Sequence record: PZ019086.1
DNA: 64,000 nt
Origin: a phage
Direction: 5' to 3' (one strand)
Positions 38,345 to 39,176 of this stretch are shown here, piece after piece; position 1 is the stretch's first letter, and each line of letters starts with the position of its first letter. The notes beneath the pieces were generated by a model. The model did not search any database. It had not been told where the DNA came from and saw only the letters and a list, made by a program, of their open reading frames with translations. The position numbers and the translations under genes are program-made.

Positions 38345-38420
38345 CTGGTCGAGGCAGTAGGGATCGAACCTACGACCTAGGACTTAGAAGGTCCTTGCTC
38401 TTCCTTCTGAGCTATGCCTC
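38345..38420 (-). tRNA. tRNA-Arg (anticodon UCU), CCA encoded
   Basis: Hand-folded cloverleaf; anticodon loop CTTCTAA; T-loop GGTTCGATCC. Confidence 0.8.
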
Positions 38421-38424
38421 GGAT

Positions 38425-38499
38425 TTGGCGGACGTGATAGGATTCGAACCTATAACCAATCGCTTAACAGGCGATCGCTCTGCCATTGAGCTACACATC
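38425..38499 (-). tRNA. tRNA-Asn (anticodon GUU), CCA encoded
   Basis: Acceptor GGATGTG/CACGTCC; anticodon stem ATCGC/GCGAT; loop CTGTTAA. Confidence 0.7.
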
Positions 38500-38503
38500 C
38501 AAA

Positions 38504-38590
38504 TTGGTGGGGAGTGATGGAGTCGAACCACCCGAGTCGCAATGACAATGGATTTACAGTCCACACCGCTACCTCTACGGGATAACTCCC
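38504..38590 (-). tRNA. tRNA-Tyr (anticodon GUA), long variable arm, CCA encoded
   Basis: Acceptor GGGGAGT/ACTCCCC; anticodon loop CTGTAAA; 87 nt. Confidence 0.7.
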
Positions 38591-38603
38591 CTTAATTCTT
38601 AAT

Positions 38604-38678
38604 TTGGTGGCCCTGGGTGGAATTGAACCACCATCTGGCGATTATGAGTCGCTTGCTTGAACCTTCCAGCTACAGGGC
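38604..38678 (-). tRNA. tRNA with anticodon CAU (Ile lysidine-type or elongator Met)
   Basis: Acceptor GGCCCTG/CAGGGCC; anticodon loop CTCATAA. Confidence 0.7.
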
Positions 38679-38679
38679 C

Positions 38680-38755
38680 TTGGTGCTGATTGACGGAATC
38701 GAACCGCCGACCTTCTCATTACAAGTGAGTTGCTCTACCTACTGAGCTAAATCAG
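38680..38755 (-). tRNA. tRNA-Thr (anticodon UGU)
   Basis: Acceptor GCTGATT/AATCAGC; anticodon loop CTTGTAA. Confidence 0.8.
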
Positions 38756-38760
38756 CAAAA

Positions 38761-38850
38761 CTGGCGGAGGCGATAGGATTCGAACCTATGAGTCGCTGGA
38801 GCGACTGCCGGTTTTCAAGACCGGTGCATTAAACCACTCTGCCACGCCTC
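38761..38850 (-). tRNA. tRNA-Ser (anticodon UGA), long variable arm
   Basis: Acceptor GGAGGCG/CGCCTCC; anticodon loop CTTGAAA; 90 nt. Confidence 0.8.
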
Positions 38851-38852
38851 CA

Positions 38853-38926
38853 GTCTCCGTGGCAGGATTTGAACCTGCGACATTCTGCTCCCAAAGCAGA
38901 CGCTCTACCAAACTGAGCTACACGGA
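38853..38926 (-). tRNA. tRNA-Pro (anticodon UGG), CCA not encoded
   Basis: Acceptor CTCCGTG/CACGGAG; anticodon loop TTTGGGA; the next tRNA follows immediately with no CCA. Confidence 0.75.
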
Positions 38927-38936
38927 GTAAATTAAA

Positions 38937-39010
38937 TTGGAGCGGATAATGAGAATCGAACTCACATCATCAGATTGGAAGTCTGAGGTAATGCCATTAT
39001 ACGATATCCG
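38937..39010 (-). tRNA. tRNA-Gly (anticodon UCC)
   Basis: Acceptor GCGGATA/TATCCGC; anticodon loop CTTCCAA. Confidence 0.8.
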
Positions 39011-39015
39011 CAAAT

Positions 39016-39102
39016 TTGGTGCGAGAAGTGGGACTCGAACCCACAAGGAAATCATTCCGCAGCATTTTAAGTGCTGTGCCTTTACCAATTTGACCATTCT
39101 CG
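39016..39102 (-). tRNA. tRNA-Leu (anticodon UAA), long variable arm
   Basis: Acceptor GCGAGAA/TTCTCGC; anticodon loop CTTAAAA; 87 nt. Confidence 0.8.
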
Positions 39103-39103
39103 C

Positions 39104-39176
39104 GCTGGGAATAAAGGACTCGAACCTTTGCATCTAGCAGTCAAAGTGCTATGCCTTACCAACTTGGCTAATTCCC
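39104..39176 (-). tRNA. tRNA-Gln (anticodon UUG), CCA not encoded
   Basis: Acceptor TGGGAAT/ATTCCCA; anticodon loop CTTTGAC. Confidence 0.75.

Follow-up and report, generated by a model that had tools for sequence, protein, structure and literature searches.

A tRNA array in a T4-like phage that most probably represents the segB-less ten-tRNA operon of Tequatrovirus

Phage sequence record PZ019086.1 provided the stretch of 64,000 nucleotides analysed here (the window), which comes from a T4-like phage of the genus Tequatrovirus and carries a compact array of tRNA genes on its minus strand. We are highly confident that this array is the segB-less tRNA operon of the genus (i.e., of the RB3/RB1/T2L type), in which ten tRNA genes are followed by the stable-RNA genes rnaD and rnaC and by an intrinsic terminator. 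The ten-tRNA layout is already known, having been published in 2008 (PMC2330249), and hundreds of deposited genomes share it; it is not new. What is added here is the probable assignment of the CAU-anticodon tRNA to the Ile2 type, covariation in the tRNA-Tyr cloverleaf, a comparison of codon demand, the likeness of tRNA-Tyr to that of phage T6, and a difference in tRNA-Asn at the site cut by the nuclease AriB.

ARAGORN called exactly ten tRNA genes in the window, all of them on the minus strand at 38346-39177, and the Rfam model RF00005 (gathering score 29 bits) independently called 10 of 10, nine at 59-74 bits (E 1e-10 to 1e-14) and tRNA-Tyr at 30.2 bits. In the direction of transcription the order is Gln(UUG), Leu(UAA), Gly(UCC), Pro(UGG), Ser(UGA), Thr(UGU), CAU, Tyr(GUA), Asn(GUU) and Arg(UCU). 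An earlier note on this DNA had described ten back-to-back minus-strand tRNAs in the same order, one of them with a CAU anticodon, and both programs agree with it, ARAGORN (which the note had named as a check) calling Tyr and Asn with anticodons GUA and GUU; it had the locus right, although its coordinates, 38345-39176, are off by one base. Between ARAGORN boundaries the spacers measure 0, 5, 10, 1, 5, 1, 13, 4 and 4 nucleotides (nt) from Gln to Arg, much as the note had estimated (most 1-10 nt), and neither segB nor any other open reading frame (ORF) lies within the array, where the largest spacer is 13 nt. The 3' CCA is encoded in 8 of the 10 genes, and Gln and Pro are the two without it, again as had been claimed. 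The Gln gene ends in ...CCCA-G73-C74 and abuts position +1 of Leu, and the Pro gene ends in ...GGAG-A73-C74-U, after which Ser begins. The array block matches hundreds of phage records at 95-97% identity, which is far beyond chance. Coordinates of all features are given in Table 1.

Table 1. Features of the tRNA array and its downstream region (positions in the window).
Feature	Coordinates	Strand	Basis or remarks
tRNA-Gln (UUG)	39104..39177	-	66 bits RF00005; 74/74 identical to T4
tRNA-Leu (UAA), long variable arm, CCA encoded	39017..39103	-	87/87 identical to T4
tRNA-Gly (UCC), CCA encoded	38938..39011	-	73/74 identical to T4
tRNA-Pro (UGG), CCA not encoded	38853..38927	-	ARAGORN and Rfam
tRNA-Ser (UGA), long variable arm, CCA encoded	38762..38851	-	ARAGORN and Rfam
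tRNA-Thr (UGU), CCA encoded, positions 36-41 UAAUGA	38681..38756	-	ARAGORN and Rfam
CAU-anticodon tRNA, predicted Ile2 (ileX/ileY, lysidine) type, CCA encoded	38605..38679	-	63% to T4 tRNA-Ile; 100% to RB9 and RB51
tRNA-Tyr (GUA), long variable arm, unusual D-arm, CCA encoded	38505..38591	-	30.2 bits; covariation
tRNA-Asn (GUU), CCA encoded, positions 36-41 UAAGCG	38426..38500	-	74 bits RF00005
tRNA-Arg (UCU), CCA encoded	38346..38421	-	63% to T4 tRNA-Arg (different allele); 99% to RB9
Cassette unlike T4 (CAU past its first 12 nt, Tyr, Asn, Arg)	38342..38667	-	ends approximate to a few bases
Predicted preferred SegB site GGTTCGAATCCTATCACGTCCGCCAAA, 27 bp, T-arm to 3' end of tRNA-Asn	38424..38450	-	
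rnaD (species 2 stable RNA) homolog	38224..38344	-	mapped from RB9 and T4 annotations; 3' end approximate
rnaC (species 1 stable RNA) homolog	38080..38218	-	alignment to RB9 and T4
Intrinsic-terminator-like hairpin, 10 pairs (7 G-C), then T run	37998..38029	-	conserved in T4

The 1.4 kb around the array matched 1077 phage records, 446 of them at a query coverage of at least 80%, with best identities of 96-97.5%. The Tyr-Asn pair was found in 396 phage records at a coverage of at least 80%, and the Gln-Leu-Gly block, which is common to T4, in 447, two sets that need not be nested. Clearly, the genus commonly carries the ten-gene set, and the eight tRNAs of T4 are a reduced state. The earlier note had given T4 eight tRNAs without Tyr and Asn, in agreement with the T4 record, and had credited this phage with a larger complement, which is true relative to T4 but is common in the genus and not special to this phage. 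Comparison with other T-even clusters, as the note had proposed, finds the same array in RB9, eight tRNAs in T4 and a different layout in T6, and the tRNA locus is mosaic across the T-even phages in its layout (T6), its Pro alleles and its CCA status. The tRNA-Pro of the window belongs to a second allele class that is present in about 200 phage records and is 85% identical to the Pro genes of both T4 and RB9; the differences fall in the anticodon, T and acceptor stems and are mostly compensatory pairs, with Watson-Crick pairs in the acceptor stem of the window's gene where T4 has G-U. Outside the genus, a Thr/CAU segment ~88% identical and a tRNA-Tyr ~96% identical to those of the window occur in Vequintavirus (rV5-like phages such as FV3, an unrelated family), and because of these matches it seems that tRNA genes may have been exchanged between coliphage families.

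Identity to the T4 genes is high over the first part of the array (Gln 100%, Leu 100%, Gly 99%, Pro 85%, Ser 94%, Thr 96%) and is 63% for both the CAU and Arg genes. The homology to T4 reaches 12 nt into the CAU gene and picks up again where rnaD begins, both breakpoints being sharp, and at the corresponding position T4 holds the rest of its Ile gene, segB and Arg. Because of these breakpoints, CAU-Tyr-Asn-Arg (~330 nt) is to be read as an alternative cassette to the Ile-segB-Arg cassette of T4 (~860 nt), and T4 has only eight tRNAs because its cassette sits in the place of the other one. Brok-Volchanskaya et al. (2008, PMC2330249) reported that segB is missing from T2L, RB1 and RB3, which have additional or isoacceptor tRNA genes, the tRNA region of T2L additionally holding two ORFs. 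In T4 x T2L crosses SegB drove its own cassette to 99.6% inheritance, the Met/Ile, Tyr, Asn and Arg genes being lost, and the preferred site of SegB is a 27-base pair (bp) sequence in tRNA-Asn with the preferred nucleotides G6, A16, G18, A26 and A27 and the pattern GGTTCRANTCC ... CCAR (PMC2330249). The corresponding 27-mer in the window is identical to that of RB9 and has 5 of the 5 preferred nucleotides, and none of the other nine window tRNA genes has all five. Probably the homing endonuclease SegB, with its preferred cut in tRNA-Asn, drove the replacement of CAU-Tyr-Asn-Arg by Ile-segB-Arg in T4, and the predicted site would mark the phage as a SegB-sensitive recipient in co-infections.

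The description of the array as ten tRNAs in the earlier note holds for the tRNA genes but stops short, as the array continues past Arg into rnaD, rnaC and the terminator. These three elements directly follow tRNA-Arg and are probably in the same transcription unit as the tRNAs. The rnaC homolog is identical to RB9 at 139 of 139 positions and to T4 at 137 of 139, and close to its 3' end it contains a T-arm-like hairpin, CCGGG-UUCGAAU-CCCGG. Both RNAs fold much more stably than shuffled sequence (rnaC with a z-score of -4.55, rnaD with one of -2.88). No Rfam family was found for either at the gathering or E-value threshold; the sole Rfam match in rnaC was tRNA-Sec-like (16.6 bits) and lay over the T-arm-like part. 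We know of no function assigned to rnaC or rnaD.

The tight spacing of the genes, together with the two that lack CCA, points to a polycistronic precursor. In the scheme that we propose, the whole block would be transcribed as one such precursor, host RNase P would cut the 5' end of every tRNA, and host 3' exonucleases would trim trailers of 1-13 nt. As tRNA-Gln is encoded only to C74, C75-A76 must come post-transcriptionally, presumably through the host CCA-adding enzyme, and the same enzyme may complete Pro once one U has been removed. The 3' contexts of Gln and Pro are the same in T4.

Once mature, the tRNAs may top up the host pool for the over-used codons of a 35% G+C genome. Codon usage in 67 long window ORFs (16,992 codons, 35.1% G+C) was compared with that in 33 annotated E. 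coli genes (8,065 codons), a host sample that is small and not weighted by expression. For the eight T4-type tRNAs, enrichment of the cognate codons is 1.6-8.2 fold (AGA 8.2, ATA and ACA 3.6, TCA 3.5), and the two most enriched amino acids are Asn (1.69-fold) and Tyr (1.57-fold), followed in third place by Lys (1.54-fold). A codon comparison between phage and host had been suggested in the earlier note, and by this measure each of the ten tRNAs serves a codon or an amino acid that is over-represented in the phage. The eight T4-type tRNAs would read A-ending codons little used by E. coli, including AUA through the predicted Ile2-type CAU tRNA, and Tyr and Asn would serve the two amino acids most over-used by the phage.

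For two of the tRNAs another explanation has to be weighed. The earlier note had left the CAU tRNA as an Ile/Met type; the anticodon is right, and the type can now be narrowed to Ile2. Best E. coli matches to this gene were found in 5336 of 5426 genomes, and among the places listed all are annotated tRNA-Ile (76-82% identity) and none is annotated tRNA-Met; the median of 2 matching places per genome fits ileX/ileY. One E. coli match that was examined is 79% identical overall and shares the 15-nt core of the anticodon arm, GCGACTCATAATCGC, and because this tRNA-Ile gene has a CAT anticodon, the ileX/ileY type is indicated. The acceptor stem of the CAU tRNA, GGCCCTG / CAGGGCC, gives C4-G69 and C5-G68, which Ikeuchi et al. 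are said to have described in 2005 as determinants for the lysidine synthetase TilS. In window genes ATA is enriched 3.6-fold over the host and ATG is depleted (0.8-fold), and the identical gene of RB51 is entered in its record as a tRNA-Ile that has Ile identity elements. It is thus improbable that the gene specifies an elongator tRNA-Met instead of an AUA-reading tRNA-Ile, even though its DNA anticodon is CAT, ARAGORN and the RB9 and T6 records label it Met, and the T2L gene has been named both tRNA-Met and tRNA-Ile (PMC2330249). We conclude that it is, on comparative grounds, a predicted Ile2-type tRNA that would read AUA and belongs to a different allele class from the tRNA-Ile of T4. For tRNA-Tyr, whose Rfam score lies just above the threshold, the question is whether this is still a working tRNA or a tRNA-like remnant that has decayed or lost its function. 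Folded alone it gives no cloverleaf (z-score -0.91), its D-arm is unusual (a 3-bp CCG/CGG stem after a 4-nt linker), and ARAGORN called no tRNA-Tyr in the homologs of Moonvirus NM4.3, Kanagawavirus ZX14 and Citrobacter phage Ursula, of which the ZX14 and Ursula records annotate a tRNA-Tyr and the NM4.3 homolog is unannotated. When explicit cloverleaf pairs were counted over an alignment of ten phage homologs, drawn from five genera or more (among them Tequatrovirus, Vequintavirus, Tequintavirus, Moonvirus and Kanagawavirus), however, 97.8% of cells were paired, compared with 42-60% in slid controls, six pairs were changed on both sides, and the core tRNA features were all conserved. The low Rfam score and the ARAGORN misses probably arise because the D-arm is atypical. 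Moreover, the T6 tRNA-Tyr, which is identical to that of the window at 85 of 87 positions, is seen on northern blots and is active in rescue (PMC13096335). Decay of tRNA-Tyr is therefore highly improbable.

At E ≤ 1e-3, no E. coli chromosomal Tyr or Asn gene matched the Tyr or Asn gene of the window. Recent capture of the two genes from the host was rejected because of this result, which places their origin in phage lineages. E. coli plasmids contain 273 places that match the window tRNA-Tyr (90-94% identity), and E. coli chromosomes contain none; one plasmid example, NZ_CP024264, is phage-plasmid-like (with genes for DNA ligase, PhoH, glutaredoxin and an integrase) and has an Asn-Tyr-Thr-Ser tRNA cluster of its own. 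T4-like phages of Klebsiella, Enterobacter and Citrobacter carry a homolog of tRNA-Tyr followed by tRNA-Lys(UUU).

Tyr and Asn are also of current interest in counter-defence. According to Chihara et al. (2026, PMC13096335), the variable arm is where Septu cleaves tRNA-Tyr. The T6 tRNA-Tyr, when over-expressed or amplified, rescues infection under Septu, deletion of the tRNA region sensitises T6, and rescue by tRNA-Tyr on defence-carrying hosts has been demonstrated for T6 and T5 (PMC13096335). The variable arm of the window tRNA-Tyr, GTCATTGCGAC (GTC-ATTGC-GAC), is the same in T6 and T5, and that of the host (GTC-ATC-GAC) is 2 nt shorter; it is this arm at which the nucleases of Septu and retron-Eco7 are aimed. 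Three host tRNAs, those for Lys, Thr(UGU) and Asn(GUU), are cut between positions 40 and 41 by the PARIS nuclease AriB, the last of them more weakly (2025, PMC12409363). The host site is U36-A-A-U39-C40/N41 (cut at the slash), although the site alone does not decide cleavage; a change of U39 to A abolishes cleavage of tRNA-Lys, and the Lys, Thr and Asn tRNAs of T5 together neutralise PARIS (PMC12409363). Positions 36-41 of tRNA-Asn read UAAUCC in the host, UAAGCG in the window and RB9, UAAGUU in T5 and UAAUCA in RB51, so that both U39 and C41 of the host gene are G in that of the window. In tRNA-Thr these positions are UAAUGA in the window versus UAAUCA in the host, a difference to be read with the same caution about the AriB site. 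Two or more alleles of T-even tRNA-Asn can thus be told apart at the AriB site, and the UAAUCA of RB51 is the best-substrate sequence of AriB.

The extra tRNAs may buffer the phage against tRNA-cutting nucleases, with Tyr acting against Septu and retron-Eco7 and Asn and Thr against PARIS. We rank supply plus buffering as the best account of the array, the two roles being compatible. A rival explanation is that Tyr and Asn are kept mainly as counter-defence, replacing host tRNAs destroyed by nucleases, and that the codon match is a by-product of an A+T-rich genome. The rescue and sensitisation seen with the near-identical T6 tRNA-Tyr, the contribution of T5 tRNA-Asn to PARIS rescue (PMC12409363), the G39/G41 difference from the host at a site where a change of U39 blocks AriB on tRNA-Lys, and the derivation of both genes from phage lineages are all consistent with it. 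The rise in demand is greatest for Asn and Tyr, however, which is what supply predicts without any defence role, and Septu also cuts the T6 tRNA-Tyr, wild-type T6, with its single gene copy, being still restricted (PMC13096335). Because Septu cleaves the T6 tRNA-Tyr as well as that of the host, protection by Tyr depends on dosage, and since the window has no segB, SegB-driven amplification of Tyr is not available to the phage on its own. The phage also has no tRNA-Lys(UUU), the main target of AriB, so that Asn and Thr by themselves would probably fall short against PARIS and evasion would be incomplete. We consider it doubtful, while a serious candidate, that counter-defence is the main reason for which Tyr and Asn are kept. 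The restriction of single-copy T6 and the missing tRNA-Lys also weigh on the buffering half of supply plus buffering, and further points count against our overall account. The host side of the codon comparison has the limits given above. A scan for the sigma-70 consensus over 37700-40200 returned 3 sites, against 5.9 expected from shuffled sequence, with none just upstream of Gln, and no promoter could be assigned to the array. Finally, the processing scheme leans on what is reportedly classical T4 work on tRNA precursors by McClain, Abelson, Deutscher and colleagues.

A further, rather unlikely possibility suggested by the sequence at positions 39-41 is that the window-type tRNA-Asn (G39, G41) is resistant to AriB and that the T-even polymorphism at these positions records an arms race with PARIS-like systems. 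If that is the case, anti-defence value and homing attack by SegB would compete over one 75-nt tRNA-Asn gene. As a discovery the ten-tRNA array carries little weight, and its value is that of a clean reference case, in which Tyr and Asn are placed in a well-understood context and the textbook phage T4 appears as the holder of a reduced tRNA set.

By PHROG matches and ORF sizes, read against the T4 and RB9 annotation, the array lies between the e.6-e.8 genes and a group made up of trna.2, trna.3, trna.4 and ipI, as in T4. Between the trna.2 homolog and tRNA-Gln lies an ORF of 183 amino acids (39266-39817, minus strand) that belongs to phrog_2290, a family of unknown function. T4, RB9 and T6 have no gene at this position, and the homology to RB9 ends at the stop codon of the ORF, which is found in 249 phage records and is a common accessory gene.

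Among known systems, the array of RB9 (species Tequatrovirus RB3, GenBank KM606998) has the identical ten-tRNA order, followed by rnaD and rnaC, and likewise no segB. Its CAU, Tyr and Asn genes are 100% identical to those of the window and its Arg gene 99%; the differences are the Gln (89%) and Pro (85%) alleles, the CAU-Tyr spacer (13 nt in the window, 9 nt in RB9) and the 183-amino acid ORF just upstream of Gln, which RB9 lacks. T4 carries its array at the same genomic position, its Gln and Pro genes are similarly without CCA, and its rnaC and terminator are conserved, whereas its Ser and Ile genes lack the CCA that the Ser and CAU genes of the window encode; CCA status varies by allele. The T6 record lists Gln-Leu-Gly-Thr-Met-Tyr and then segB, with Pro, Ser and Asn absent, and its CAU tRNA is a T4-type allele with CCA encoded, unlike the gene of T4. 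The annotated T6 tRNA-Thr was not called by ARAGORN. T6 has segB, and SegB-driven amplification of Tyr has been described for it. T5, from a different phage family, has a tRNA-Tyr that is about 85% identical overall to that of the window, with a matching variable arm, and a tRNA-Asn that has G39 like the window's and is strongly diverged outside the conserved core; its tRNAs neutralise retron-Eco7 (Tyr) and PARIS (Lys, Thr and Asn).

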